A DNA stretch of 64,000 bases from an uncultured Candidatus Sumerlaeota bacterium (GCA_964473105.1 CAYYNQ010000048.1:97709-161708), one strand, 5' to 3'. Positions 4,316-50,368 are shown, counted from the first letter of the stretch. A program made the numbers and translations. The notes: generated by a model from the sequence alone, not told the origin.

Positions 4316-5209
4316 GTGGTGCTGCCCAGTCTAAGCCCCTACCAGATCCTCAAAAGCATGCGACCGAGGCAATGGCCCAAGAACCTGCTACTGCTGGCAG
4401 GCCTGTTTTTTGCCCGCAAGTTCAACGATCCACAGTCCATTTACGCCGCACTCAGCGGATTCATCATATTTTGCGGCCTATCCGGATCGATTTACCTTTT
4501 CAATGATGTCCTTGACAGGGACAAAGACCGAAACCACCCCCTCAAGAAATCACGCCCGGTTGCGTCAGGTGCCCTGTCACCTGGAATCGCGCTGGCCACC
4601 GCGGGGATCATAACAGGCGTATCCATGGCTTGGGGATTCCAGATAAGTCCCTGGTTTGGATGGTGTTCGACGGCCTATACCCTGATGATGCTCGCTTATT
4701 CATTGAAACTGAAGCACGTCTTCTTGGTTGATACACTGATCATCGCAATGGGCTTCCTGATCCGAGCCGTCTCCGGAGTCATCGTTCTCAGGACACCATC
4801 CGCCCATGTTGAACTGACACCATGGTTCGTAATTTGTGTGTTGTTCCTGTCGCTATTGCTGGCATTCTGCAAACGACGTGCCGAAAGGGCATCTATCCTT
4901 GGTGAAGCCCTCAAAACACGGCCTGTTTTGGCCTACTACTCAATACAACTGCTCGATATGATGATTGGTGTCAGCGCATCAGGAGCTATCCTCTCCTACA
5001 CGCTATACGCGATGAGTTTCGCACGGCCATGGCTGGTGTTGTTAACCCTGATTTTCGTCCTTTTTGGAATCTTCAGGTATCTCCATCTTGTTTACGAAAG
5101 GGGACTGGGAGAAGCCCCGGAGATAATCCTGCTGACTGACCGCTCCATCCTACTATGCCTGCTGCTCTGGGGAATATCACTGATATTCATATATATGCCG
5201 GGGGGCTGA
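4316..5209 (+). CDS. UbiA-family prenyltransferase (decaprenyl-phosphate phosphoribosyltransferase-like)
   Basis: It has the NDxxDxxxD motif (NDVLDRDKDRNHP), an RPxxSG motif and about eight TM helices. The GTG start is preceded by GGGGGA. Confidence 0.8.
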   Translation: MVLPSLSPYQILKSMRPRQWPKNLLLLAGLFFARKFNDPQSIYAALSGFIIFCGLSGSIYLFNDVLDRDKDRNHPLKKSRPVASGALSPGIALATAGIITGVSMAWGFQISPWFGWCSTAYTLMMLAYSLKLKHVFLVDTLIIAMGFLIRAVSGVIVLRTPSAHVELTPWFVICVLFLSLLLAFCKRRAERASILGEALKTRPVLAYYSIQLLDMMIGVSASGAILSYTLYAMSFARPWLVLLTLIFVLFGIFRYLHLVYERGLGEAPEIILLTDRSILLCLLLWGISLIFIYMPGG

Positions 5210-5596: not shown

Positions 5597-5699
5597 CTGT
5601 CCCGGCGTATTATTCCTTCATGTTATTCCGGCCACTAAATATCGTATCACCCGACTCGTTCCGATTTGACCCGGAAAAGCCCGAATCCAAAGGTTGACC

Positions 5700-7529
5700 A
5701 TGTCTTGCGGCTCCACCGGCACCTCGACCGTAATGAACAGTCAAGAATGCAATGTCTCCGTTAACGATGTCGTACTATCGATCGCGACAGCAAACGGTAC
5801 CGGAAGCCAGTCAGCAAACCTGATCCTGACCCGTTCCATTTTCCAAATGGGTGTCCCGGTCAGCGCAAAGAATCTCTTCCCCTCAAACATTCAAGGGCTT
5901 CCGACCTGGTTCTCCATCCGTGCCAACCGCAATGGCTACACCGCCCGCCGCCCGGATGTCGATATTATGGTCTGCATGAACTCGCGCTCGGTCGAGGAGG
6001 ACCTGAGAGGATTAAATCCCGGAGCGGTCGTCCTGATTCGGGACGACCTGATGGGACACGTAGCCCGGGACGACCTAAAGGTCATCCCCGCACCCTTCAG
6101 TTCGATGGTCAAGGAAGTCTGCCCGCTGGCCAAGATTCGAAAACTTGTCATGAACATGCTGTATGTCGGCGTGCTTGCATATTTTCTCAAACTCGACCTC
6201 GATGAAGTCAACCGGGCGATCGATAGGCAGTTTTCCGGAAAGAAGAGTGCCGCCGACCTGAACCGTTCTGCAATGAAAGCCGCGTGGAAGTGGGCCAACG
6301 AAAACGTGGACCTGCAATGTCCCCACCGCATTGAAAGGATGGACGGGACCGACGACAAAATCCTAATCGAAGGGAACCAAGCCGCCGCGCTCGGGGCTGT
6401 CTGGGGAGGCATGACTCTGATGGCTTGGTATCCGATCACACCCAGCAGTTCGCTTGCGGAGGCAGCCATCGATTACCTTAAGACCTATCGACATGACCCG
6501 AAAACGGGCAAAGCAACATATGCGGTCGTTCAGGCCGAGGATGAACTGGCTGCATTCAGCATGGTGGTGGGGGGAGGCTGGGCTGGGGCTCGTTCTATGA
6601 CCACTACAGCAGGGCCCGGGATATCACTTATGGCTGAACTTGCTGGACTTTCATATTTTGCGGAAATTCCGACCGTCATTGTTGATGTCCAGAGAATGGG
6701 CCCGTCAACCGGGCTTCCGACCCGGACCTGCCAAGGTGACATCCTGAAGGCTTATTATCTTTCCCACGGGGACTGCCGCCATATCTGCCTGATTCCCGGA
6801 AACGCCCGCGAATGTTTCGAGATGATGGCAGAGTCATTTAATCTGGCGGAGAGATTCCAGACTCTGGTCTTCATGCTCAGCGACCTAGACCTTGGCATGA
6901 ACCTCTGGATGAGCCCGCGCTTCGATCCAGTCAAAAAACCGATCGATCGCGGCAAGGTCCTAAGCGCAAGTGACCTTGAAAAGCTGGATGTTTTCAATCG
7001 GTATGAGGATATTGACGGTGATGGAATTCCCTATCGGACACTACCCGGCACACCACATCCATCGGCCGCCTATTTCACCCGTGGCACAGGCCATTCCACG
7101 GCTGCGATGTATTCGGAAAACCCAGAGGATTGGAAGGCGAACATGGACCGGCTCAATTGCAAGTTTGAAACGGCACGCAAAGAGCTTCCGGAGCCAATCT
7201 GTTTGACGCATGAAAACCCGCACATCGGAATCATCGCCTATGGATCATCCGACCCGGCGGTCATCGAGGCCCTGGATGTCCTGAATCAGCAATATGATAT
7301 TACCGCGGATTACATGCGGGTTCGGGCATTACCCGTCCACCAGCATGTTTATGAATTCATCAGGAAACATGAGCGAGTTTTTCTCGTTGAACAAAATCGC
7401 GATTCGCAGTTGCATAGTATCATGTCCAGCGAGGAACCGAATCTCATGACAGACGTGTGTGCTATCCTACATTACGATGGCATGTCGATTGACGCCGCCA
7501 CCATTGTCCGCCAGATTCTAGAAAGCTGA
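5700..7529 (+). CDS. korA: 2-oxoglutarate (2-oxoacid):ferredoxin oxidoreductase, alpha subunit with N-terminal gamma domain
   Basis: An N-terminal gamma-like domain (IATANGTGSQSANLIL) is followed by a pyruvate/2-oxoacid oxidoreductase alpha domain (GNQAAALGAVWGG..., TTAGPGISLM). The ATG at 5700 has an AAAGG RBS; the track ORF begins at TTG 5694. Confidence 0.85.
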   Translation: MSCGSTGTSTVMNSQECNVSVNDVVLSIATANGTGSQSANLILTRSIFQMGVPVSAKNLFPSNIQGLPTWFSIRANRNGYTARRPDVDIMVCMNSRSVEEDLRGLNPGAVVLIRDDLMGHVARDDLKVIPAPFSSMVKEVCPLAKIRKLVMNMLYVGVLAYFLKLDLDEVNRAIDRQFSGKKSAADLNRSAMKAAWKWANENVDLQCPHRIERMDGTDDKILIEGNQAAALGAVWGGMTLMAWYPITPSSSLAEAAIDYLKTYRHDPKTGKATYAVVQAEDELAAFSMVVGGGWAGARSMTTTAGPGISLMAELAGLSYFAEIPTVIVDVQRMGPSTGLPTRTCQGDILKAYYLSHGDCRHICLIPGNARECFEMMAESFNLAERFQTLVFMLSDLDLGMNLWMSPRFDPVKKPIDRGKVLSASDLEKLDVFNRYEDIDGDGIPYRTLPGTPHPSAAYFTRGTGHSTAAMYSENPEDWKANMDRLNCKFETARKELPEPICLTHENPHIGIIAYGSSDPAVIEALDVLNQQYDITADYMRVRALPVHQHVYEFIRKHERVFLVEQNRDSQLHSIMSSEEPNLMTDVCAILHYDGMSIDAATIVRQILES

Positions 7530-7560
7530 CTCGATCACAAACCGCCGGGAATTGATTCGA

Positions 7561-8607
7561 ATGACAAACCCCTCCACCACTAAAGCCGCACCCAAGCTCA
7601 ACCGTCTTGGCCGATCTAAGGCCGATTACAAGGGTAGACCCTCTACACTTTGTAAAGGCTGCGGTCATGATTCGATCACGAGCCAGCTAATCCAGGCCTT
7701 CTGGGAGGCGGATATTGACCCTTGGCAGGTCGCCAAAATGAGCGGAATCGGTTGCTCCAGTAAAACAACCGCCTATTTCCTCGATGAATCACATGGATTC
7801 AACAGTGTTCACGGACGGATGGCACCAATATCCACAGGAGCTTACCTCGCCAACCATAATTTGGTCTATATCGGCGTGAGCGGAGACGGCGACAGCGCAT
7901 CGATAGGGCTGGGAAATTTCCTGCACATGGTACGACGGCATGTCCCGATGATCTATATCATCGAGAACAACGGTGTTTACGGCCTCACCAAAGGCCAGTT
8001 CTCTGCAACCGCTGACAAGGGATCACTCAGCAAGGGAGGCGTCATCAATCAAAGTGAACCCATTGATTGCTGTGCTCTGGCTATCCAAATGGGATGCGAA
8101 TACGTCGCCCGTACGTTTTCAGGAGACTTCAAACAACTTGGCCCACTGATCAAGGGAGCCCTCAGCCATACCGGAACCGCGTTGATCGATATCGTCTCAC
8201 CCTGTATTACATTCAATAACCATGAAGGCTCGACAAAAAGCCTGGCTTATGCCAAGTCCCATGAGGAGCAACTGCATGAGATCGGGTTCGTCCCCCAACA
8301 TGAACCCATCACCGCAGATTATGATGCAGGTGAGATCATCAAGATCGACCTGCCCGACGGGTCATCAATTCTATTGAAAAAACTGGACAGGAACCACAAT
8401 CCCGCAAACAAGCTTAAGGCCCTAAACCTACTGATGGAAGCGTCTGAAAGCCAGTTATTCCTAACCGGCCTGATTTATTGTCGATCCGATACAAATCCCA
8501 TCGAGGACCAGTTAAATCTGGTCGATGAATCCTTGGCTACGCTACCTGAATCCATGCTCCGTCCCCCACCTGAAAAGCTGAGGGAGGTCATGGATTCCCT
8601 GTCCTGA
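7561..8607 (+). CDS. korB: 2-oxoglutarate (2-oxoacid):ferredoxin oxidoreductase, beta subunit (TPP-binding)
   Basis: Has the CxGCGH motif (LCKGCGHDSI) and a TPP-binding GDG...N segment (GVSGDGDSASIG...ENNGVYGLT). It lies 22-30 nt downstream of korA. Confidence 0.85.
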   Translation: MTNPSTTKAAPKLNRLGRSKADYKGRPSTLCKGCGHDSITSQLIQAFWEADIDPWQVAKMSGIGCSSKTTAYFLDESHGFNSVHGRMAPISTGAYLANHNLVYIGVSGDGDSASIGLGNFLHMVRRHVPMIYIIENNGVYGLTKGQFSATADKGSLSKGGVINQSEPIDCCALAIQMGCEYVARTFSGDFKQLGPLIKGALSHTGTALIDIVSPCITFNNHEGSTKSLAYAKSHEEQLHEIGFVPQHEPITADYDAGEIIKIDLPDGSSILLKKLDRNHNPANKLKALNLLMEASESQLFLTGLIYCRSDTNPIEDQLNLVDESLATLPESMLRPPPEKLREVMDSLS

Positions 8608-10296: not shown

Positions 10297-10312
10297 TGGA
10301 ATAGAGGTTGCA
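10297..10312 (+). promoter_or_regulatory. Candidate sigma-54 (-24/-12) promoter TGGAAT-N5-TTGCA upstream of the sensor kinase operon
   Basis: TGGAATAGAGGTTGCA matches the GG-N10-GC spacing of the TGGCAC-N5-TTGCW consensus. It sits ~90-120 nt upstream of the kinase start, and the operon encodes a sigma-54 activator. A 10-bp palindrome ATGATATCAT follows it. Confidence 0.3.
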
Positions 10313-10417
10313 TATGATATCATGCAGTGATGGTTAACGGCTAAAGTCGTATAAAAATGTTCCATACAGTGCTTTTTTGTTCCTGTTTTGAACAAGATTC
10401 CATATAAATGTCCAAAT

Positions 10418-11962
10418 ATGAACATCTTTAAATTGCATCGATCCATAGGCTTCTGGGCGGTAATGTTGTTGCTTCTGGCACTTGCGCTGCAATACACAGG
10501 AGGATTATACATTATTGAACTAACTAGATTTGCGAAAGAAAAAGGCTTAGAGAACCACATGGCCGATCTGGGGCGTCTGGCTTCCACCGTCCTGAACCAA
10601 ACAGTGGATGATCTTCACGCTTTGGCGCAGGAGTCAACTTGGGCAGAAAACCCCGATTTATTCGTGTCCGATTCACCTCCAGATCCTGACACGGAAACCT
10701 ATCTGGCTGGCTTGGATTCATCCATTAGTTCTGTTGTCATCGAATTCGCTGAACGCTCCCGACTTTCCTCGATTGTCATCCTCGATCGCTCGGGAATGAT
10801 TCTTTTTCATACCGATGATCCCGACCAGATCCTCGAGTTTTGGCCTTACGACCAGCCCTGGGTCAAACTCGCGCTGGACGGACAAACTTCCTCGCCCCCG
10901 GCCTATCCTGTCGATAATCTGATGTTCAAACGCTTCTACATACCGATGAAGATGATACCCAATGTTTTACCGGGGGATTTATCCACCTCGTCGAGCAATC
11001 TGGAAGACAAACCACCCGGGTCGGAGGATGTCAATGCCCTGATCTGCCTGGTTGCAGGTCGTGATTACCTCGGCGAGATTAAGCATCTGACCCGTAGCGT
11101 CCACCGTACGGCATTTATCCTGACACTGCTTCTCGCGCTGATTGGATATTTAATCTACCGTATCATGCAGCAGCAGCGAAAGGTCGAAAGGCAGGCTTCA
11201 GAAGCCGACCGCTTGGCAAGCCTAGGCACACTTGCCGCAGGCTTTGCACACGAACTACGTAATCCGCTCGGTATTATCCGAGCCTTCATCGAAGATCTTG
11301 AACACAGTCTAAGGAACCACCAAAAACCCGAGGGCAGTATTGATCTCTGCGGGGACATCATCGAGGAAACCGACCGGATGAATCACTTGATCAGCCAATT
11401 CCTCGAATATTCGCACGACAACCGCCGTGGCAGCAATGCTTGTGTTCTAGAGTCGATTCGCAGCGTCAGGGTGATTCTATCTCCCACAGCCGAGAAAAAG
11501 GGTGTCCAGATCGACATCCAATGTCACATCCCCAATGAAACACCGCAGGATTGCAGGGCTTCTATCAATCCTGATTCCCTGAAACAGGTCATATTGAACC
11601 TGTTAATGAATGCGATTGAGATGTCCGGTCGCGAAACTAGAATCCTCTGTAACATCGGCGCGACAACCCGGCAGGTGACTATTGCAATACGTGATGAAGG
11701 TCCCGGCATCCCTCCCGGTAATGCCAAGCATATTTTTGAACCCTTCTATAGTACACGACCCGGAGGATCGGGCCTAGGTCTAGCCGTCTGCCGCCGGATT
11801 GTCCAGGATTATGGCGGCACGCTTAATCTGGATACTTCGTACAAGCTCGGGGCCCTATTCGTTATCCGCCTGCCGAGGACAAAAGGACGGGCGGACCCAT
11901 CAGACAAGCAAGAAGTCATTGGAATAAATTTTGACAACACCCAACAGGAAAGGGACGAATGA
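10418..11962 (+). CDS. Sensor histidine kinase with periplasmic sensor domain
   Basis: Two TM helices flank a ~200-aa extracytoplasmic domain. It has an HisKA H-box (FAHELRNPLG) and HATPase N/G boxes (NLLMNAIE, DEGPGIP, GGSGLGLAV). The start is uncertain: TTG at 10388 or ATG at 10418 or 10463. Confidence 0.8.
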   Translation: MNIFKLHRSIGFWAVMLLLLALALQYTGGLYIIELTRFAKEKGLENHMADLGRLASTVLNQTVDDLHALAQESTWAENPDLFVSDSPPDPDTETYLAGLDSSISSVVIEFAERSRLSSIVILDRSGMILFHTDDPDQILEFWPYDQPWVKLALDGQTSSPPAYPVDNLMFKRFYIPMKMIPNVLPGDLSTSSSNLEDKPPGSEDVNALICLVAGRDYLGEIKHLTRSVHRTAFILTLLLALIGYLIYRIMQQQRKVERQASEADRLASLGTLAAGFAHELRNPLGIIRAFIEDLEHSLRNHQKPEGSIDLCGDIIEETDRMNHLISQFLEYSHDNRRGSNACVLESIRSVRVILSPTAEKKGVQIDIQCHIPNETPQDCRASINPDSLKQVILNLLMNAIEMSGRETRILCNIGATTRQVTIAIRDEGPGIPPGNAKHIFEPFYSTRPGGSGLGLAVCRRIVQDYGGTLNLDTSYKLGALFVIRLPRTKGRADPSDKQEVIGINFDNTQQERDE

Positions 11963-12029
11963 AGTCTGGTCAATCCAGAACCGGAAACAATTGAGAGATC
12001 GAAATAAGGTTAACCAAGGAGCCCATGCC

Positions 12030-13472
12030 ATGACGACGGCATTAAAAATCCTGATACTTGACGACGAACCCAAGATGGGAAGAATCCTGTCACGGATCCT
12101 TAAACGTGAGGGACATGATGTCTCAGCCTCCAGTGATCCAAACGAGATACTCGGGAAGATCCATGACTCTCCGGTGGACCTGGCAATCACGGACCTTAAA
12201 ATGCCGGGAATGGACGGACTTGAATTCATGAGGCAGGCACGCAAAATACAGCCGAATCTGGACGTAATTATGATGACCGCCTTTGCAACGGCGGAAACCG
12301 CGGTAGAGACCATGAAAGAAGGAGCTTTCGATTATCTCATCAAGCCCTTCCCCAACGAAGAGATGATAATGGTCGTTTCTCGCGTTGCTGAACGCCGCAG
12401 GTTGCGTGATGAAAACAGGCGCCTCAAGGAAAGGCTATCGGACCGATTCAATCATGAACAGATCATATCGGTCAGTCATAACATGCGTGAGGTCATGAAA
12501 CGGGTGGGCAAGGTTTCCGTCAGCGAAGTATCTGTGTTATTGAGGGGTGAAAGTGGGACCGGCAAAGAGATCCTTGCAACCGCTATCCATGAAAACAGCT
12601 CGCGCTCGGAGAATGTTTTAATCCGAATCAACTGCGGCGCCCTCCCCGAATCGCTACTCGAGAGCGAGTTGTTTGGCCATATCAAGGGAGCCTTCACCGG
12701 CGCTGTCGAGACGCGTAAAGGCCTTTTCGAGGAGGCCCATGGGGGATCCATCTTCCTGGACGAAATCGGTGAAATCAGCCCTGCGTTGCAGGTCAAGCTA
12801 CTACGGGTGCTGCAGTCGGGCGAATTCCAGCGCGTGGGAGATACCCAAACCCTCCATGCCGATGTTCGAATTATCGCGGCCACCCACCGCGACCTGGAAA
12901 AGATGATCCAGCAAGGCGAGTTTCGCAGTGATCTCTATTATCGCCTGAACGTTGTCCCGATCATGATCCCTCCACTGCGGGATCGACCCGAGGATATTCC
13001 GGCACTGATTGACCATTTTCTTATGCGGATCCGCGAAAACAGCAACAAGACCATTCAACTGGCAAGAACGGCCTTTGACCGCTTGACTGCCTATGACTGG
13101 CCCGGAAATATCCGTGAACTCGAGAATGCAATCCAACATGCCCGGGTTATGTGCGAAGAGGATATAATCCAAGTCACGGATCTACCCGTTGTGATCCAGA
13201 TTACACTCCCTGACCCCCTTGGGAACCAAAAGCCAGGAGAGAATTCCCACCACATTGACAACCAGTTAACATTGGATGAAATCGAGAAAAAGGCATTGAT
13301 CGATGCACTCAATGCGGTGAATTATAATCATACACGTGCCGCACAAAGACTGGGTATCACCCGCCGAATGCTGGGTTCCCGACTAGACAAATACAATTTA
13401 CCCAGAAAAATAACGGATCGCGTGGTGGAGTCCATATCTATTCCCGATTCTCGCCTTAAAGATAAATCATGA
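12030..13472 (+). CDS. Sigma-54-dependent response regulator (NtrC family: REC + AAA+ + HTH)
   Basis: REC domain (ILILDDE...DLAITDLKMPGMDG) followed by AAA+ Walker A (GESGTGKE) and the GAFTGA motif (GAFTGAVETRKG). A C-terminal Fis-type HTH is present. The ATG at 12030 has an AAGGA RBS, and the gene overlaps the kinase 3' end. Confidence 0.85.
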   Translation: MTTALKILILDDEPKMGRILSRILKREGHDVSASSDPNEILGKIHDSPVDLAITDLKMPGMDGLEFMRQARKIQPNLDVIMMTAFATAETAVETMKEGAFDYLIKPFPNEEMIMVVSRVAERRRLRDENRRLKERLSDRFNHEQIISVSHNMREVMKRVGKVSVSEVSVLLRGESGTGKEILATAIHENSSRSENVLIRINCGALPESLLESELFGHIKGAFTGAVETRKGLFEEAHGGSIFLDEIGEISPALQVKLLRVLQSGEFQRVGDTQTLHADVRIIAATHRDLEKMIQQGEFRSDLYYRLNVVPIMIPPLRDRPEDIPALIDHFLMRIRENSNKTIQLARTAFDRLTAYDWPGNIRELENAIQHARVMCEEDIIQVTDLPVVIQITLPDPLGNQKPGENSHHIDNQLTLDEIEKKALIDALNAVNYNHTRAAQRLGITRRMLGSRLDKYNLPRKITDRVVESISIPDSRLKDKS

Positions 13473-14476
13473 AGACAATATCACCGGAAAAACCCCTTGA
13501 TCCTCATATCCACAAGTCATCTTCCTGGATCACGGTGCTGGCCCTGATACCCGTATTATTGGTCGGGGTTAAAGCAATGGGACAACCCGATATCCCCGGC
13601 ATTAATCATCACAGATCTGATGTTATGCCGGTTGAAATGATAAGTAGCCAGGAACAAGGATCCGAGAGACACCACTCTCTCCGGGGCCCATTTTTGGATA
13701 AATCACGACACAATCCCGCACAGCAAACACATGAGCGTTCATCCTTCTTCAAACGGCGTAAGTGGGAGAAGATGACTTTTGAAGATCCCCTGGAGAAGGA
13801 AGATCTGATCCGAATGGACAGTTATCTCCAAAAACTCATTGAACAGCATTCCATCCTGGCCAATGAACTCGAAAATATCAGCAGGGATATCGGCGGATCC
13901 ATGTCTAACAGCATCAATCCCGCTCCCAGTCCAAAAAAGGTCATCAGGAGCCCGAAAATACGCAAGATGATGGGTAAACAGCACCGACTGATCAACGAAC
14001 AACGCAATATCAGGAAAAAGATGGGTCGACACCTTTTCAAGATAGCGGTCAACCATCCACAATGGGGGCACCTCGTGGAACCTGATGGCAATGGTATTAA
14101 TAATGCCACATCGGACATCACTCTGACACGCTGGGCAAAGGCCCATCTATATATCAGTAATGGGGATATCAGGAATTTTGTGGTCATGTTTCTCGGGAAA
14201 CCCTTGGGCACGGGAATTTACCGGCGTATTAATGAGGCATTGGACAGGCAATCCGACATGACCGAGCCTGGGCACCCGGTTGCTGATGATCCGGAATGGA
14301 TTAAAGGACATCAGCACGACTCACAAAACCTCGGGGGGAGATTGATACGATTGGAAAGACATATTCGCAAACTGAAACAGGTGATCCATAGACAAGCCCG
14401 GGAAATTGATCGATTGCGGTCGATCCTTGAAGGCAAAGTTCCCCGGTCGACAGATAAAATACCGACAGTCGAATAA
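13469..14476 (+). CDS. Hypothetical membrane-anchored protein, translationally coupled to the sigma-54 response regulator
   Basis: There is an ATGA start/stop overlap with the regulator. It has an N-terminal signal anchor (WITVLALIPVLLVGVKA) and a coiled-coil C-terminus, with no recognisable domain. Confidence 0.55.
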   Translation: MKTISPEKPLDPHIHKSSSWITVLALIPVLLVGVKAMGQPDIPGINHHRSDVMPVEMISSQEQGSERHHSLRGPFLDKSRHNPAQQTHERSSFFKRRKWEKMTFEDPLEKEDLIRMDSYLQKLIEQHSILANELENISRDIGGSMSNSINPAPSPKKVIRSPKIRKMMGKQHRLINEQRNIRKKMGRHLFKIAVNHPQWGHLVEPDGNGINNATSDITLTRWAKAHLYISNGDIRNFVVMFLGKPLGTGIYRRINEALDRQSDMTEPGHPVADDPEWIKGHQHDSQNLGGRLIRLERHIRKLKQVIHRQAREIDRLRSILEGKVPRSTDKIPTVE

Positions 14477-14738
14477 CCGTATCCCAGAAATAGGCATCCC
14501 GGACACGAAGGATGTGGATGCAGAATTTCAAATAATCTTTATGGGTGACAAATTGAGTTCGGGTATTTCATTGAGCCCAGACCAAATACTTTATTTCGGG
14601 GTTGAATCCAAAGCTCCAGCAAACAAACCGAATTTCTTTCTGGTGGGTGCGTCAATGGTGTGACAATATATGATAATTAGGACACCGGAATAACTGTTTT
14701 CCCCGGTGAATATCGAACCGTTGGGAACCGGATAAACG

Positions 14739-16109
14739 ATGGAATTCAGTCTCGATAAATTCTACCAGATTAACCGGCGAGCCCTGATCTGGGTCATTCT
14801 GCTGGTCCTGATATTTTTACTCCGTGATTTCTTTGGCCTTGTGTTCCTAACCTTCGTCTTTGCATTCCTATGCGAGGCGATGGTCAAGTTCAGTGGCGTA
14901 AAACTGGGTCTTCCCCGTCGACCAGCTATTCTCATCGTATACGGCCTGTTCCTAGTAGTCCTGATCTCGCTCCTGGTCTTTGTCGTTCCGCGTGTAAACA
15001 AGGAAGCTTGGAAACTGGTCGGGAACTTGGGCGATATTCAAGAAAAAGTTGTCGATCAGAAGAACTTTCTAGTCAGGAAATATCCGGCCCTTGATGACGC
15101 TTTCACGAGTTACCTCAGGGGGGCGATCGCCCCTGAGGCACTTATCCATGTCAAGAATCAACTGGGAGCAAAACAGACCGATCTGAAACTTGAGGATCAT
15201 GAGACCTATTTCACACAATCCCTGTTTCTGTCGGATAAAGATAATCTCACCTCAAATATGCTTCAGATGAAGATCAGCGAGTTTCACAACTATGAAGAAA
15301 GTCTTCTCCTAGCTGAGTTCAACAAGTCCATAGTCACAAAAGTTCGTGAATTCATCTTCGACAAACTTCCCAACCTGATTAATGTCGCCATCACCGTTCT
15401 CCTGTCGCTCCTGTTCAGTTTCCTGATCATGATTGACATTTCACGCCTGGGACGGGAGGTTGCGAGCCTGAGACAGTCCCGGTTGCATGATTTCTATGAG
15501 CAGACGGCGCGGCCGGTCCTGCGATTTGCCTATGTTGTCGGCCGTGCCATCCAGGCTCAGTCCGTCATTGCAATCATCAATACACTCCTGACACTCGTGG
15601 GCATGTATCTGCTAAACATCTCCTCACTTGCAATGTTGTCCGTGATTGTGTTCTTCTGCAGTTTCATCCCGGTTGCCGGCGTGTTTATCTCGACAACACC
15701 AATCGTCCTAGTGGCGCTGAATAGCGATGGAGGTATGACAACTGCGATCTTGGCGATCGTCATGGTCACGGTGATTCACATCGTCGAAGCATACGGCCTG
15801 AACCCGTTGATCTACGGGAAACACATGAAAATCAATCCCGTCTTGGTATTGATCATCCTGTTCCTCGGACACCATCTGTTTGGGATATGGGGTGTGCTGC
15901 TCGGGGTTCCGGTGACGCATTATTTTATCCATGATGTCTTTGGCGTTCCGGTCTGGAGTGAAAAGAGAATGGCGCCCAATCCAGGGGTCAATCCAATTTC
16001 AGACAACAAGGATCAGATTGCGATCCAGCAGAAGGATCCGAATATACCCAGACATGATGGATCCGGCCCGTTGACGACTGATGAAGATAATTCCAGAAAT
16101 GATGCGTGA
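14739..16109 (+). CDS. AI-2E family transporter (PerM/UPF0118) with long hydrophilic loop
   Basis: Multi-TM profile with the conserved C-terminal AI-2E pattern (FIPVAG...GHHLFGIWGVLLGVP). A ~120-aa insert follows TM3. Confidence 0.8.
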   Translation: MEFSLDKFYQINRRALIWVILLVLIFLLRDFFGLVFLTFVFAFLCEAMVKFSGVKLGLPRRPAILIVYGLFLVVLISLLVFVVPRVNKEAWKLVGNLGDIQEKVVDQKNFLVRKYPALDDAFTSYLRGAIAPEALIHVKNQLGAKQTDLKLEDHETYFTQSLFLSDKDNLTSNMLQMKISEFHNYEESLLLAEFNKSIVTKVREFIFDKLPNLINVAITVLLSLLFSFLIMIDISRLGREVASLRQSRLHDFYEQTARPVLRFAYVVGRAIQAQSVIAIINTLLTLVGMYLLNISSLAMLSVIVFFCSFIPVAGVFISTTPIVLVALNSDGGMTTAILAIVMVTVIHIVEAYGLNPLIYGKHMKINPVLVLIILFLGHHLFGIWGVLLGVPVTHYFIHDVFGVPVWSEKRMAPNPGVNPISDNKDQIAIQQKDPNIPRHDGSGPLTTDEDNSRNDA

Positions 16110-34496: not shown

Positions 34497-35840
34497 TCAG
34501 GGCGCACGGAGATCCACACAGTGAAGCACTGACTGACTGCGAATCAGAAGGCGGCCGTCTGCCAGCGCAAGCGGCGACCACATCTGAAGATCTTCACGGG
34601 GGCCATCCGTTCCAAACAGGTTGGCCTCGGCCAACGGGACATATTTCTCGGGTCCGGGTTCAATCAACCTCAGGTGGCCTGACCTTCCGTCCTGACTGAT
34701 CAGCATCCCGTCGGCCAACAACATGCAACCGCGGCCCAGATTGGGCTGGTTACCGGTTCTCCACAACACCTCACCTCTCAGGTTCAAACATAATAATCCG
34801 CCGTCGGCTAACCAACGCAGACCCCTTTGGTTGCTATTGTTATTCACCAAAAGGTATATATATCCCTCATAGTAAACAGCCGGATGGAGGTGCGAACCTC
34901 TTTCAATACGAAACACTTCGCTTGCCGACCAAGTTCCTTGGTCACCTGATATCTCCAAAAGAACTGTAAGCGGAGTATATCCTTCCGTCACCAGTAGCCT
35001 GTTTGTTTCGACCTGCGTTACCGTCGCTACCGGCATAAGTGACCTGAAGTTGTCATATTTCCACAGGATCCTGCCCGAATCCGGATCGATCCCATGAACA
35101 ATCGCACTACCCGAAGGGCTGGCCTCACTCTTTGCCTCTCTGTTGCTACTGATAAAGACAACCTGGTCCATACCTTCAATGCGTACATGACTGGATGTCA
35201 TGCAACTGGACAGTGGGGTCTCGATTCTCCATGTTTCGTGCCCGGTTTTAGATTCTAGTGCCACCAAACCGGCCGCCGGAGACAAGGGAGCGACGATGAC
35301 TTGGTCCTTCCAGAGTACCGGAGAGTGTGAATAACCAAACATTGGAACCTCAGTCGGATATTTCTCACCAAGCAGGATGGTCCATACAGGTTTGTGAGTT
35401 TCACGGTCAATACAAAGAACACGACCGAATCCCGACACACAGAAAACGGAAGTGTTGTTTACGGCGGGAACAGTCCTCGATCCCGGGTAGGACAACTTGC
35501 CCGGTTGTGGGCTTTCATGGGTCCAAATGGATTTCCCACTCTCAAGGTCAATACACCGAAGCACATCCTTTGCCCCGGCAACCCGATCGAAGATGAAAAC
35601 CTCACCACGATGTACGGAACATCCGCCGAAACCCGGCCCCACATCGGCCGACCAGAGAATCCTTGCCCCCCCCGGTGAAAAGAAACGCACCAGATTTTTT
35701 TCCTCCGAGACATTGTCCCCTCCGGGCCCCTGAAAGCCTGGCCAATCGGCGAAACAAACCGCTCGAGGACCGAAAAATAATCCTACAATGATGATGAATA
35801 GGTATAGACGCATCTCTTTTCCAACCAAGGAGGCAAACAT
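34497..35840 (-). CDS. PQQ-like beta-propeller repeat protein (BamB-like), secreted
   Basis: A signal peptide is followed by repeated ...W...G....SP..... blades of the kind seen in PQQ/BamB propellers. Confidence 0.7.
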   Translation of the reverse strand: MFASLVGKEMRLYLFIIIVGLFFGPRAVCFADWPGFQGPGGDNVSEEKNLVRFFSPGGARILWSADVGPGFGGCSVHRGEVFIFDRVAGAKDVLRCIDLESGKSIWTHESPQPGKLSYPGSRTVPAVNNTSVFCVSGFGRVLCIDRETHKPVWTILLGEKYPTEVPMFGYSHSPVLWKDQVIVAPLSPAAGLVALESKTGHETWRIETPLSSCMTSSHVRIEGMDQVVFISSNREAKSEASPSGSAIVHGIDPDSGRILWKYDNFRSLMPVATVTQVETNRLLVTEGYTPLTVLLEISGDQGTWSASEVFRIERGSHLHPAVYYEGYIYLLVNNNSNQRGLRWLADGGLLCLNLRGEVLWRTGNQPNLGRGCMLLADGMLISQDGRSGHLRLIEPGPEKYVPLAEANLFGTDGPREDLQMWSPLALADGRLLIRSQSVLHCVDLRAP

Positions 35841-43338: not shown

Positions 43339-44499
43339 TTAACGTAGCTTCAACATTGCCAATCCCGCCATTGCCAGCAGAAACGAAACCAGCCAAAAGC
43401 GAATAATAATCGGACTCTCGGGAATTCCCATTCTTTCGAAATGATGATGCAGCGGTGACATGAGAAAAATTCGTTTCTTTCCGCGCAGTTTGCAAGACCC
43501 CACCTGCAAAATCACCGACAGACACTCAATCACAAAAATCCCGCCGATCACTAACAACAACATCTCTTGCTTCAACAGTATTGCTGTAGTTCCCAAGGCA
43601 CCTCCCAGCATCATCGATCCCGTATCACCCATGAACACCGAAGCGTGATGTGCGTTGAACCATAGAAACCCCATTGAAGCACCCAGCAAGGCCGCAAGAA
43701 AAACCACGATCTCTCCCCCACTCCTGATATATGGAACAAGCAGGTAGTCAGAAAAATCCACACGGCTAACCAGATAGGCCACGATCAAAAATGCCATGAC
43801 GTTCGAGATGGTCACGCCAATAGCCAACCCATCTAGACCATCGGTCAGATTGACCGCATTGGATGCAGCCCACATCACGATGACCACGAATGGAATGAAC
43901 CAAATGCCGAGATTTGGATAAATTTGCTTGAAAAACGGCACTGTGAGATACGGATAACCCGTGTAGATAATATTCTCATCCCCACCAGGCGCATAACTTG
44001 CCTGCCATTCACTTCCCTGAAACATCAGAGAAATTCCCAGTGAAATCCCGAGGATGGCCTGAATACACAGTTTTGAGCAGGCGCTTAGTCCCCCATGATG
44101 CTGCCTCCGGATCTTGCAAAAATCGTCCCAAAAACCTAGCCCTGCGAAACCGAGAGACATCACGATCAGCAGAATCACGTGCATGTTGTTCAGGCGGCAC
44201 AATATAAATACCGGAATTAACAATGCAACCAGAATCAGCAACCCACCCATCGTGGGAGTACCACGCTTACTGCCATGCATATGCGCCAAGCTGATCGCAC
44301 CATCACCGCTGGTCTCACGAATCACCTGCCCGGCTTTCATTCGGCGCAGTATCGCGATGATGCGCGGACCCACTATCAGCGAAATCGCGAAGGACAGGCC
44401 CAACGCCAGAGCACCTCTTACGGTGATAAACTGAAGAACCCGCATGAAGCCAATATCTCCATCTTTGGATGCAAGCCAGTCGAGTAATAAGATCAGCAT
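43339..44499 (-). CDS. mraY: Phospho-N-acetylmuramoyl-pentapeptide transferase
   Basis: Co-linear with E. coli MraY, including KRGTPTMGG, NAVNLTDGLDGLA, FMGDTGS and QVGSCKLRGKK. It has 10 TM helices. Confidence 0.9.
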   Translation of the reverse strand: MLILLLDWLASKDGDIGFMRVLQFITVRGALALGLSFAISLIVGPRIIAILRRMKAGQVIRETSGDGAISLAHMHGSKRGTPTMGGLLILVALLIPVFILCRLNNMHVILLIVMSLGFAGLGFWDDFCKIRRQHHGGLSACSKLCIQAILGISLGISLMFQGSEWQASYAPGGDENIIYTGYPYLTVPFFKQIYPNLGIWFIPFVVIVMWAASNAVNLTDGLDGLAIGVTISNVMAFLIVAYLVSRVDFSDYLLVPYIRSGGEIVVFLAALLGASMGFLWFNAHHASVFMGDTGSMMLGGALGTTAILLKQEMLLLVIGGIFVIECLSVILQVGSCKLRGKKRIFLMSPLHHHFERMGIPESPIIIRFWLVSFLLAMAGLAMLKLR

Positions 44500-44514
44500 C
44501 AGGCCTTGACTCCC

Positions 44515-45966
44515 TTATTCAGAACCGTCTCCAAATAAATCCATATCCGGCATAATCGCCCGGGCGATTGCCTCGAGCTCGAAACCATGTGAACCCTTGA
44601 AAAAGACCCGGTCGCCGGGTTCCAGGTTTGCCGCAAGTGCTTCGACAATTCCTTGACGGTCAGAACCATAACCACATGCTTGGATCCCCATATTTTCCAG
44701 TCGTCCAGCCAGTTCTGTACAGCGCTCACCCAGCCCCAGAAACATTGCCGGCCGGGCTTGGATCAACAGCGGTATAAGCGAATCATGTTCCGATTTCGCA
44801 TGGTCACCCAGTTCCAGCATATCAGCCAGAACGATCACAAGTCTTCCGCCAGGCCCCAAGTCACTGAGTGACCGGATGGCACACTGCATCCCGGAAGGTG
44901 TGGCATTGTAACAGTCCAGAATAAATGTCCAGTCGCCTACCCGTACCACTTCACCCCGGCAGCGTTCTAAATGGAAGTCCTCCAGGCCCCCGCAAACCAT
45001 AAATGGATCGAAATCCATGGCCAGCAACAGGGCCGCGGCTGCCGCCACATTATCCAATTGGTGTCGACCGAACAAAGGTAATTCGAGTTTCGTGCGAGTA
45101 ACATCGCCGATTGTCATACTAAACCGGTAACCGACCGGATCAAACCTGTCCACATCATGTACAAAAACGTCTGCCTCAGACCCCGTTCCGTCCGGAGCTT
45201 CAACTGAAAAATTGGTCAACGGGTATTCCCTGAATTCATCGATGCACGTCCGCGTATTGGGACATTGCGCATTCACTACGAGTGGCGTTCCTGGTCGGCA
45301 ATTTCTGAATAGGTCGAGCTTCGCGGATACCAGATCCGCATGCGAATCGAACATGCCAATATGGGCGCGACCGATCTGTGTTAACAAAGCCGCTGTGGGA
45401 TCTGCAATACGGGCAAGTCTGGCTAGTTCACCTGGCTGGTTCATACCCAACTCGAGCACGGTCACTTCATGTTCGCTCGCGAGGCGCATGAGCGTATGCG
45501 GAACGCCTACCAGATTGTTGAAATTCTGAAAAGGTTGAAGTATCTTGTATTCTTGGTCAAGTGAAGCGGCCACAAGCCGGCGGGTTGTCGTCTTTCCGGC
45601 ACTTCCGCCAATCGCAAGAACAGGTCCACCCCACTCTGTTCTTCTTGCAAGCGCCAACTCACCATAAGCCTCCAGAGTATCCATAACCCGCAGACACGGT
45701 ATATTCAATCCGAGAGGGTCGAATTCATGGCCCGACATGATAATCAGTCCCGAGGCACCCGCTTCGATTGCTTGTCCCAGAAAATCATGTCCATCAAATC
45801 GATCACCCTTCAATGCAAGAAAAACATCGCCTTTCGCGATCGAACGGCTATCGGTTTGAATTCGGCTGAATGACACACACCCGGCCAGATTTTGGCATTC
45901 ACAATCAAGCAGATGACTCACATGATCCCAGGTCCACTGTCCGAGACTATGGTTTATGTTGATCAT
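44515..45966 (-). CDS. murF: UDP-N-acetylmuramoyl-tripeptide--D-alanyl-D-alanine ligase
   Basis: Mur ligase motifs GSAGKTTT, DSRSIAKGDVFLALKGDRFDGHDF and the central/C-terminal Mur ligase domains. The first ATG (45966) has a GGCAGGA RBS; the track ORF begins at TTG 46002. Confidence 0.85.
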   Translation of the reverse strand: MININHSLGQWTWDHVSHLLDCECQNLAGCVSFSRIQTDSRSIAKGDVFLALKGDRFDGHDFLGQAIEAGASGLIIMSGHEFDPLGLNIPCLRVMDTLEAYGELALARRTEWGGPVLAIGGSAGKTTTRRLVAASLDQEYKILQPFQNFNNLVGVPHTLMRLASEHEVTVLELGMNQPGELARLARIADPTAALLTQIGRAHIGMFDSHADLVSAKLDLFRNCRPGTPLVVNAQCPNTRTCIDEFREYPLTNFSVEAPDGTGSEADVFVHDVDRFDPVGYRFSMTIGDVTRTKLELPLFGRHQLDNVAAAAALLLAMDFDPFMVCGGLEDFHLERCRGEVVRVGDWTFILDCYNATPSGMQCAIRSLSDLGPGGRLVIVLADMLELGDHAKSEHDSLIPLLIQARPAMFLGLGERCTELAGRLENMGIQACGYGSDRQGIVEALAANLEPGDRVFFKGSHGFELEAIARAIMPDMDLFGDGSE

Positions 45967-46027
45967 AAATCGAGTCCTGCCCAAAGAGGCCACTACATGC
46001 AATCATCTGTTGGGTTCCGGGGTTTCA

Positions 46028-47545
46028 TTACCCGGCGTAGCGTTCACAAATGCAATTCCTTGCCACCTCAATATCATCAAAATGTGATTTACGACCCATC
46101 ACGTCCTGATAATTCTCATGGCCCTTGCCCGCAACGAGGACAAAATCACCTTCACCGGCCATCGAAATGGCGCTACGAATCGCGGCGTTACGATCCAGAC
46201 ATATTTCAAGAACGGACTCCGGGCCCATAATTTCCCTGGCCCCAGCAGCAACCATATCGGCGATTTCCCGTGGATCCTCAGTTCTCGGATTGTCATTCGT
46301 GATAATCAAGATATCCGCATATTCCGCAGCGGCTCGGCCCATCATTGGCCGCTTTGTATTGTCACGATCGCCTCCCGCACCGAAAACAACAATCAACCTC
46401 GAAGGGGTCTCTTGCCGGGCATTATCAAGTGCCTTTGCAAGTGAGTCAGGAGTGTGTGCATAATCGATGACAATATCAAAAGGCTGGCCTTCATCAACAT
46501 ATTGAAACCTTCCAGGAACACACTCCATGGCACGTATCCCCTCAGCAATTGCATCATCCGTAAACCCCGCCGCCGCCGCCATGCCGACCGAAACGAGACA
46601 ATTCTGAATATTGAAATCTCCCGGCAGGTGTGTCATGACCTCAAGAATTCGCCCATCCAATCTGATCCGGATGCGATGTCCCCGCCCATCGGGGACCACA
46701 GAAGATACCGAAACTCCGGTATCGCGGCGTTTCATACTGTAATCCAAGACACGGTTCCTGCCGGATTTTTCTACATGTTGCGCGATATGCATGCCAGCTG
46801 GATCGTCCACATTCAGAACAGCTATTCCCGCAGGATTGTCGGCCAATATTTCAGTATATAACCGCTGCTTAGCTGTGCGGTAATCCTCCATAGACCCGTG
46901 GTAATCCAGATGGTCCTGCGTGAGATTGGTAAAACCTGCCGCCGCAAGAAATATACCGTCAACCCGGTACTGGTGTAACGCATGGGAACTGATTTCCATA
47001 GCTACAGCATCAACCCCATCGGCATGCATCCGGGTCAGTATACGGGCAATCTCACCCGGCGCCGGCGTTGTTGTCGGTGCCGGAAGAACCTGACCTTTCC
47101 ATCGGTTGTTGACGGTTCCCATCACACCTGCAGATTTTCCTGCTGCACAAATGATTGATTCCATAATCCATGTAACGGTCGTTTTTCCGTTGGTTCCACT
47201 GATCCCGAACACGGTCATCTCCCGCGAGGGATCCTGCTCGACATGATGGGCCAGGAGTGAGAAAACCCGCCTTGTTGGTTGCACTGTGACCAGATGCATA
47301 CCCTCGGGCGCCCGCGGGCCGGATCCATTTTCAACCAGGGCACAACGGCACCCCAGACGGGCGGCCTGCTCAAGATAATCATGTCCGTCGGCACGATACC
47401 CCTCTATGGCAACGAACAGGATTCCTGGGCCACATTTCCTAGAATCATCAGTTACATCATCAAACCATAAATCAGGAATGTTACCGGCCAACGGCCGAAT
47501 GTCGAACTTATTCAGGACATCATTCAGGTGAAACACGATTGCCAC
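46028..47545 (-). CDS. murE: UDP-N-acetylmuramoyl-L-alanyl-D-glutamate--2,6-diaminopimelate ligase
   Basis: GISGTNGKTT Walker motif and a DNPR motif (ITNDNPRTEDPREI). It is co-linear with E. coli MurE. Confidence 0.9.
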   Translation of the reverse strand: MAIVFHLNDVLNKFDIRPLAGNIPDLWFDDVTDDSRKCGPGILFVAIEGYRADGHDYLEQAARLGCRCALVENGSGPRAPEGMHLVTVQPTRRVFSLLAHHVEQDPSREMTVFGISGTNGKTTVTWIMESIICAAGKSAGVMGTVNNRWKGQVLPAPTTTPAPGEIARILTRMHADGVDAVAMEISSHALHQYRVDGIFLAAAGFTNLTQDHLDYHGSMEDYRTAKQRLYTEILADNPAGIAVLNVDDPAGMHIAQHVEKSGRNRVLDYSMKRRDTGVSVSSVVPDGRGHRIRIRLDGRILEVMTHLPGDFNIQNCLVSVGMAAAAGFTDDAIAEGIRAMECVPGRFQYVDEGQPFDIVIDYAHTPDSLAKALDNARQETPSRLIVVFGAGGDRDNTKRPMMGRAAAEYADILIITNDNPRTEDPREIADMVAAGAREIMGPESVLEICLDRNAAIRSAISMAGEGDFVLVAGKGHENYQDVMGRKSHFDDIEVARNCICERYAG

Positions 47546-47601
47546 TGCCCGGTCCGCCGTCCGGGGTGAAAGACCGGATCATGGTTTATGCGACCTAAGA
47601 G

Positions 47602-49746: not shown

Positions 49747-50368
49747 GCCGACCTCTTGAACACCTTCGGAATCAGGTATCAGCCAGATCCACTCCGCTCC
49801 TGTGAATGGATTCCAATCTTCTTTGAAAACCCCCATGCAGGCTACGGGAAGAAGTGTCGCCAATATCGGGCAGGGGCCAGACATCGGCGACAATCCTTCC
49901 CTACCTGTCCACAAAATATTTACGGCATGACCCCATAACGGGGGCACCAAGATTGTGGACAGGGCGCCTACCTCACGGTTCCCGGTCCCTCAAAAGCCGG
50001 CCCTACGGCCTTCAACTTGGACCTGAGGGAGAACAATCGCGTATCAGCGGTCACATAGCCGGGCGATCCATATGAAAAAGAACGTATTTCAAAGGAACCT
50101 TACGGAAACGTCCGGTCTACACCTGATCATCAGCGGGAGGAGTCAACTGGACCAAATATACTGCCTCAACATACGAGCCTGATCAGGACCGACAACCGTG
50201 GAGTAAATTGTATGCCACGCTCGTTCGCGCGCGGCCTGAAAATCGTGTCCTGCCTCCCTTCCTAATCACATTTTATCCGGGGACAGATGAATTTTCCTGG
50301 AACAGTCGGAAAAATGCCCCTACTATCAAGGGACTTAGGTCGTAGATTTTACCTCTGTTCATCCACAC

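Follow-up and report, generated by a model that had tools for sequence, protein, structure and literature searches.

We examined a 64,000-nucleotide stretch of DNA from an uncultured Candidatus Sumerlaeota bacterium (GCA_964473105.1, CAYYNQ010000048.1:97709-161708; hereafter the window). Three genes in this 64-kb window lie on the same, plus strand: a sensor histidine kinase of 514 residues (10418-11962), an NtrC-family sigma-54 activator response regulator of 480 residues (12030-13472), and a protein of 335 residues (13469-14476), which we call X. A candidate -24/-12 promoter element, TGGAATAGAGGTTGCA, precedes the kinase gene at 10297-10312. In the initial annotation, the kinase and regulator genes were described as overlapping. 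This is the case only if the regulator is read from the TTG at 11931, where its longest open reading frame (ORF) begins. The ATG at 12030 is supported by a ribosome-binding site, AAGGAG, read from the sequence at 12016-12021 on the plus strand, by the alignment of orthologous regulators, which starts with the same Met in 10/10 of them, by the exact 480-residue product recorded in public collections, and by the gene call from this ATG on a Logan contig. Therefore, the overlap claim fails, and the supported starts leave between the kinase stop at 11962 and the regulator a spacer of 67 nucleotides, which contains the ribosome-binding site and is identical at 64 of its 67 positions in the close relative L008. 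The kinase starts at ATG 10418 and not at the TTG of its longest ORF (10388); the exact 514-residue product is publicly recorded, and the gene is likewise called on the Logan contig. The reported junction of the regulator and X was confirmed: the stop of the one and the start of the other share ATGA at 13469-13472 (plus strand), an arrangement that allows translational coupling of the two predicted genes.

The three genes stay together in other genomes. The order kinase, regulator, X is kept in all ten contigs traced from kinase orthologues, and the flanking genes are unrelated. A genome collection was scanned with the helix-turn-helix (HTH) motif of the regulator; this gave 56 loci, about 40 of them from metagenome-assembled genomes (MAGs) of Sumerlaeota/BRC1, and each of the 56 was scored against profiles of X, of the sensor domain and of the regulator. 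X lies directly after the regulator at 9/9 core orthologous loci of the collection. A weak X-like gene occupies the same position at seven more divergent loci, six of which (not L049) also give a weak match to the sensor domain. Neither X nor the sensor domain was found by profile scoring at 37 other sigma-54 activator loci. It turned out that all 17 matches to the X model in the 56 fetched loci are immediately 3' of the regulator. All 17 distinct orthologous loci have X after the regulator, and in 14 of them the two genes overlap by 4 nucleotides (ATGA or GTGA). The named records of the orthologous loci are Sumerlaeota/BRC1 MAGs or are labelled just 'bacterium'. Judging from this gene order and distribution, the kinase, the regulator and X form one lineage-specific operon. 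The third gene does travel with the pair, and the proposal that it is a coupled component of one signalling unit is borne out by an order that is kept in 17/17 loci with differing flanks. The components diverge at different rates: the mean pairwise distance is lowest for the regulator (0.32), higher for the kinase core (0.50) and the sensor domain (0.63), and highest for the X core (0.74).

The kinase was predicted to sense the periplasm, and its domains agree with this. It contains HisKA (residues 269-332, PF00512, 2e-10) and HATPase_c (residues 384-488, PF02518, 1e-24) in Pfam scans, and an extracytoplasmic domain of 196 residues (33-228, nucleotides 10514-11101) flanked by two hydrophobic segments, the transmembrane segments TM1 and TM2. 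The motif FAHELRNPL is invariant in 16 kinase orthologues; with a phospho-accepting His in HisKA and with HATPase_c, the protein has the features of a class I sensor histidine kinase. About 30 full-length orthologues with the same sensor domain share 36-65% identity. The Pfam match of dCache_1 to the sensor domain is below the threshold (18.5 vs 45 bits). An AlphaFold2 model of residues 33-228, made from a 27-sequence alignment, reached a predicted local distance difference test score (pLDDT) of 85 and a predicted template modelling score (pTM) of 0.81. A Foldseek search with this model returned the sensor domains of KinD, DctB, DcuS, CitA and WalK with a probability of 1.0 and E values of 2e-5 to 1e-3. 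The WalK matches include the extracellular domain in 4ywz and 7dud (target TM-score about 0.6) and the WalK-YycH model 9a5d. By its modelled structure, the extracytoplasmic part of the kinase is a PDC/Cache fold and has the features by which that class is recognised, namely a long N-terminal helix and then a PAS-like alpha/beta fold, flanked by two membrane segments.

The regulator carries the domains named in the initial annotation. Pfam scans found Response_reg (PF00072, 7e-28), Sigma54_activat (PF00158, 3e-71), AAA_lid_14 and the Fis-type HTH domain HTH_8 (PF02954, 1e-10), and the alignment shows both GAFTGA in the AAA+ domain and the receiver aspartate motif DLKMPGMDG. These are the features of an NtrC-family bacterial enhancer-binding response regulator. 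Its orthologues are 60-76% identical to it, and all begin at the same Met. The best NCBIfam matches were AtoS and ZraS for the kinase and AtoC, NtrC and ZraR for the regulator. All scores are below the equivalog cut-offs: 177 vs 646 bits for AtoS and 155 vs 479 for ZraS, 500 vs 714 for AtoC, 400 vs 760 for ZraR, and 425 vs 559 for NtrC. By these scores, the kinase and the regulator are new members of their families and not orthologues of the AtoS/ZraS and AtoC/NtrC/ZraR systems. The recognition helix of the window regulator (13330-13360, residues about 434-444) reads GITRRMLGSR, in contrast to GITRRTLGYR in 10/10 orthologues. The two substitutions are unique to the window regulator, and they coincide with the loss of canonical operator sequences here, which is described below.

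X was described as a protein of 335 residues with a coiled-coil C-terminus, a signal anchor and no recognisable domain. We confirmed the length, the C-terminal helix and the lack of a Pfam or NCBIfam family. X consists of an export signal (residues 1-37), a disordered, poorly conserved linker (38-104), a helical core (105-265), and a long helix or coiled coil (276-320). The anchor reading fared less well. A hydrophobic N-terminal segment is present, and the N-termini of 25 members of the X family show a positive n-region, an h-region of 13-25 residues and often AxA followed by Q, so that they resemble a cleavable Sec signal peptide. Thus, the N-terminus of X looks like a cleavable Sec signal peptide, with an uncleaved anchor as the alternative reading. 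The AlphaFold2 model of X, for which five sequences were used, has moderate confidence (mean pLDDT 66). It shows a hydrophobic N-terminal helix, disorder up to about residue 104, helices at 110-146, 162-194 and 217-263 (mostly pLDDT > 90), and then the helix at 276-320.

To see how X evolves, we used the metagenome contig L008, which is 91% related to the window and whose X differs by one in-frame 3-nucleotide indel. Between the two copies of X, the ratio of nonsynonymous to synonymous substitutions (dN/dS) has an overall value of 0.50; it falls to 0.34 in the helical core and reaches 0.90 in residues 1-100, which cover the signal peptide and the linker. For the kinase and the regulator it is 0.20-0.21. 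These values show that X is a genuine gene, with purifying selection on the helical core and a faster rate of evolution than in the kinase and the regulator. In the clade of the window, L001 and L008, the X linker (window 13580-13780, residues 38-104) is rich in His and Met (HHRSDVMPVEMIS, ERHH, THERSS; in L008 MPDEMMSHHKRTSDRHH). This composition recalls metal-binding periplasmic motifs; the linker of other clades is rich in Pro, Ala and Gly.

The searches for relatives of X returned very little. A word-indexed homology search with X alone found only X itself, and the same search with a 10-sequence alignment found almost nothing. Exhaustive phmmer with X over 1.8 billion representatives gave only 4 proteins. 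The relatives of X were reached via kinase orthologues and synteny. For scans of the collections, neither the X alignment nor a nine-sequence alignment of the sensor domain offered a sufficiently conserved stretch; the pattern CLVAGRDY had no match in the genome collection and one partial close relative in metagenomes. Pfam scans of 23 X members and a comparison of a 13-member X profile with PDB sequences both gave only coiled-coil noise in the C-terminal helix. No significant fold match was obtained; the Foldseek matches to CdvB2 and Vipp1 had E > 0.1. X showed neither an LTXXQ-type match (23 members) nor a fold match that would place it among Spy, CpxP and ZraP. A place in the PspA/IM30/ESCRT-III group is not indicated either, with no Pfam match, non-significant CdvB2 and Vipp1 hits and an export signal present. 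No match to YycH or YycI was found in the Pfam scans. Read from these searches, X represents an undescribed family of predicted exported, helical proteins without detectable relatives, and it is still the unknown third gene of the initial annotation.

The promoter was proposed from its geometry. The GG-N10-GC spacing of TGGAATAGAGGTTGCA (TGGAAT-AGAGG-TTGCA) upstream of the kinase is indeed present at 10297-10312 on the plus strand, and 9/11 positions match the sigma-54 consensus. Transcription would start at about 10323, 12 nucleotides past the GC. The site alone is no better than chance: the window contains 24 sites with no more than 2 mismatches to TGGCAC-N5-TTGCW, vs 30 expected. In a scan with a matrix built from the orthologue sites (the window and L001 excluded), TGGAATAGAGGTTGCA ranked third of 128,000 positions with 14.4 bits, and shuffled windows had an average maximum of 14.8 bits. 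Thus, a matrix scan places the site near the top of the window and not above shuffled sequence, and its significance comes only from its position and conservation at orthologous loci. Among 16 loci with upstream sequence, 14 have an equivalent plus-strand element (nGGAAC or TGGCCC, N5, TTGCn) 104-140 nucleotides before the N-terminus of the kinase. For the first 11 loci, the element was in the position window in 9, vs 0.03 expected (5000 shuffles, maximum 2). The elements of the window and L001 align base for base within otherwise diverged spacers.

It is very improbable, in our view, that the -24/-12 match in the window is a chance one and that an unrecognised promoter of a different type drives the operon. 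Such a reading can point to the non-significant scores in the consensus and matrix scans of the window, to the degenerate operators in the window and to the uncharacterised promoter types of this phylum. Against it, the position and the core are the same as in L001, the site falls within the position window of 13 other loci, a site this good in a 37-nucleotide window has a probability of about 1e-3 (from the hit rate of the matrix scan), and no sigma-70-like site was found in the spacer upstream of the kinase. The 37 other loci of the collection scan, mostly from Sumerlaeota MAGs, encode GAFTGA-type activators, which suggests that the phylum uses sigma-54.

Other sigma-54-like sites in the window were set aside. 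An internal site, TGGCACTTGCGCTGCA (10476-10491), is one mismatch from the sigma-54 consensus and as a promoter would put the dyads described below at classical upstream distances. It lies inside the TM1 coding region (Leu-Ala-Leu-Ala-Leu-Gln codons). We judged it a coding by-product because of these Leu, Ala and Gln codons and because similar sites are present in only 6/16 loci, have CTGC in place of TTGC and vary in their distance to the dyads. The other high-scoring sites that we checked, at 4868, 44115 and 43134, all on the minus strand, are inside genes or antisense. The highest score in the window with the orthologue matrix, 17.1 bits, belongs to the sigma-54-like site at 4868-4883, CGGCACGTCGTTTGCA; this site is antisense inside the ORF 4316-5209, and shuffled windows score similarly.

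We also looked at the leaders between the promoter and the kinase start. The orthologue leaders contain a palindrome TGTAC-N6-GTACA with the consensus TGTACGATATCGTACA, found in 13 of 14 promoter-bearing loci (L002, L003, L004, L005, L006, L009, L011, L014 and others). Dyads of the form TGT-N10-ACA are the NifA/NtrC-like type of site. When 4-mer dyads of every kind, with spacers of 0-12, were scanned without bias, GTAC-N6-GTAC was the only dyad common to at least 3 leaders, and no shared dyad was found upstream of the promoter. Exact copies of GTAC-N6-GTAC occur in 6/11 leaders, vs 0.05 expected. All matrix hits of at least 15 bits in 765 kb of fetched loci are in these leaders, apart from a few in a divergent subgroup and one in L064. 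Counted from a transcription start taken as 12 nucleotides past the GC, the centre of the proximal site (G[TC]AC-N6-GT[AG]C) is at +42 in six loci, at +44 in L017 and at +32 in three loci, and that of the distal site is at +74 in ten loci, at +72 in L015 and at +64 in two loci. The paired dyads are 21, 31-32 or 42 bp apart, that is, whole helical turns. The distance from the dyads to the promoter is fixed and that to the start codon is variable. This ties the sites to the promoter, and the promoter gains support from it. The leader is unlikely to contain an RNA element: no Rfam match was found, and a consensus that is a perfect 16-bp palindrome is in keeping with DNA binding by a protein dimer and not with a hairpin.

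The orthologues thus have paired dyad-symmetric sites of the TGT-N10-ACA type, and the predicted operators of the window are a degenerate proximal site and a distal half-site. The proximal dyad GTTC-CATACA-GTGC (GTTCCATACAGTGC, 10359-10372, centre about +42) aligns with GCTCTATATGGTAC of L001 and scores below the matrix threshold. At the distal position (10390-10403, centre about +74), the window retains just the left half-site, GAAC (within TTGAAC, 10388-10393); this position aligns with ATTGAACTATTTCGTGCACC of L001, which scores 16.5 bits at +74. We infer that the regulator binds the leader dyads and controls its own operon. The hint of autoregulation in the initial annotation is made plausible by leader-specific dyads at a fixed distance from the promoter, and it is weakened by the degenerate copies in the window. 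Because of these degenerate copies and the two unique substitutions in the recognition helix, autoregulation in this genome may be weaker or may use an altered site. There is a precedent for autoregulation: in Desulfovibrio vulgaris, sigma-54 dependent regulators bind upstream of the operons that encode them (PMC3333781).

The position of the dyads allows two directions of control. They may be operators of negative autoregulation: bound at about +42 and +74, the regulator or a different dimeric repressor would block clearing or elongation by the sigma-54 polymerase, and activation would come from elsewhere or from solution. Two points speak for repression: the dyads lie in transcribed sequence, 44-86 bp past the -12 element, and no conserved dyad was found upstream of the promoter. 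In addition, NtrC and PspF each repress the promoters of their own genes. On the other hand, a sigma-54 promoter needs an activator, and no DNA-binding protein other than the regulator of this operon travels with it. The helical phase between the dyads and the promoter is fixed, as is expected for face-specific contact, and downstream activator sites are known for FlbD of Caulobacter. Activation from the downstream dyads is the reading that we favour; repression is its main rival, and we regard it as rather unlikely.

In L005 (7001-7117) and L007 (7001-7036), operator sites are at or inside the annotated coding region of the kinase, and L005 has a promoter-like element there too. The N-terminal kinase extensions of these two loci are not common to the orthologues. 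Since the dyads fall at or inside the annotated kinase start, the starts of L005 and L007 are probably annotated too far upstream. In a divergent subgroup (L029 7525-7544, L035 7675-7694, L038 5558-5577), the palindrome is about 250-420 nucleotides 3' of X; it is TGTGTACTATATGGTACAGT in L029 and L038, and L035 differs from this by one base. In L029, it precedes a hypothetical gene of 345 residues. A search upstream of the kinase gave no canonical promoter for L029 and L038 and only a weak match for L035. It is possible that the wiring of the divergent subgroup differs.

Two known systems are the closest functional analogues of the operon by this comparison, ZraPSR and WalKR-YycHI, and X showed none of the sequence or fold features that we looked for in their accessory proteins. 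In the ZraP-ZraS-ZraR system of E. coli and Salmonella, the small exported, helical, oligomeric ZraP depends on the system for its expression and feeds back on it. The window operon resembles it in combining a periplasmic-sensor kinase, a sigma-54 activator and a predicted exported helical protein, and its top NCBIfam matches include ZraS and ZraR. In contrast, X is more than twice as long and gives no match of the LTXXQ/Spy/CpxP type in its 23 members and no fold match. X is located downstream and is, as predicted, translationally coupled, whereas zraP is divergently transcribed, and the scores are far below the cut-offs (155 vs 479 bits for ZraS, 400 vs 760 bits for ZraR). In the WalK/WalR system of Firmicutes, the genes for the extracytoplasmic accessory proteins YycH and YycI come directly after those of the two-component pair, and the target of both proteins is a sensor domain of the PDC/Cache type. 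Here, too, a gene for an apparently extracytoplasmic accessory protein follows the two-component genes, and the sensor model of the window kinase matches the WalK domain. However, WalR is an OmpR-type regulator that works with sigma-70, and X is modelled as all-helical and has no YycH or YycI match in Pfam.

The regulator itself resembles those of AtoS/AtoC and NtrB/NtrC in its receiver, AAA+ domain with GAFTGA and Fis-type HTH, and AtoC is its best NCBIfam match (500 bits); the dyads resemble the TGT-N10-ACA sites of NtrC and NifA. The differences from these systems are the scores below the cut-offs (500 vs 714 for AtoC, 425 vs 559 for NtrC), another sensor domain, the third gene, and dyads that lie downstream of the promoter and not 80-150 bp upstream of it. 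The ftr sites of Caulobacter FlbD (background on FlbD in PMC3096577) are similar in that the activator sites of a sigma-54 promoter can lie downstream of the transcription start. This likeness is one of site placement: FlbD belongs to another branch of regulators, its targets are flagellar genes, and the organism is a different one.

Several other features of the window were noted. The spacer of 262 nucleotides 3' of X (14477-14738) has no convincing plus-strand terminator. The gene after it encodes an AI-2E family transporter (14739-16109) and is not kept beside the module at other loci. Two adjacent ORFs at 5694-8607 resemble 2-oxoacid:ferredoxin oxidoreductase; the first has POR and POR_N domains, and the translation of the second contains a motif of the thiamine-diphosphate type, GDG...NN. 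The region 43339-49950 on the minus strand is part of a cell-wall and division cluster with an MraY-like glycosyltransferase, two Mur ligases and a class B penicillin-binding protein. A BamB-like protein with pyrroloquinoline quinone (PQQ) repeats is encoded at 34497-35840, which suggests that an outer membrane is present.

From the layout of the locus, we lean, with cautious confidence, towards an autoregulated sigma-54 operon in which secreted X partners the PDC/Cache domain of the kinase or is the output of the system. According to this scheme, the kinase would sense an extracytoplasmic cue and phosphorylate the regulator. The regulator would assemble on the two helically phased leader dyads (about +42 and +74) and remodel the sigma-54 RNA polymerase at its own promoter, so that the system would amplify itself. 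X would be produced in a fixed ratio with the regulator, be exported via Sec and oligomerise by its C-terminal helix. In the periplasm, X might then act as a partner and feedback modulator of the kinase sensor domain, or as the effector of the system.

Taken alone, the last of these roles would make X purely the output, a secreted structural or chaperone-like envelope protein made on kinase stimulation, with no feedback on the kinase. We consider this fairly improbable. It would agree with the observation that the operon seems to be its own main target, with almost no operator copies elsewhere in 765 kb, and with the nature of X, which is predicted to be exported and all-helical and is probably oligomeric; the distance correlation also shows no specific link between X and the sensor domain. 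However, the 4-nucleotide overlap and the strict co-occurrence with one sensor type are the pattern of an accessory partner, and an effector is more often a separate, separately regulated gene.

A number of results weigh against the autoregulated operon with a secreted partner or output. No rpoN was found in the 64-kb window or in any fetched locus. No site in the window itself matches the operator matrix, and dyads downstream of a promoter are unusual for enhancers and equally compatible with repression. The model of X is only moderately confident, and since X has no informative relative in sequence or fold, its role rests on genomic context. The mirror-tree comparison of X with the sensor domain did not discriminate, because the distances correlated with r of 0.76-0.84 for every partner.

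In a further-reaching version, X would be the founding member of a novel family of helical co-sensors that are exported, and the operon would be a self-contained three-component sigma-54 circuit with two phased downstream enhancers (about +42 and +74) and feedback on the PDC/Cache kinase by secreted X. We hold this only as a tentative possibility. If it is true, such wiring, a downstream enhancer combined with secreted feedback, is undescribed for sigma-54 systems and is confined to a phylum without a cultured model organism.

Two-component systems with sigma-54 activators and with extracytoplasmic accessory proteins are already known. What is new here is a family of predicted accessory proteins without detectable relatives, a three-gene unit strictly conserved across a barely studied phylum, and paired dyads at a fixed helical phase downstream of a candidate sigma-54 promoter. 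The practical value is modest: the operon offers a well-defined object to annotate and to reconstitute in a heterologous host. Should the regulator activate from these dyads, the module would provide a compact case, found in nature, of a bacterial enhancer in a downstream position, and if X modulates the kinase, it would represent a new class of helical periplasmic co-sensor.

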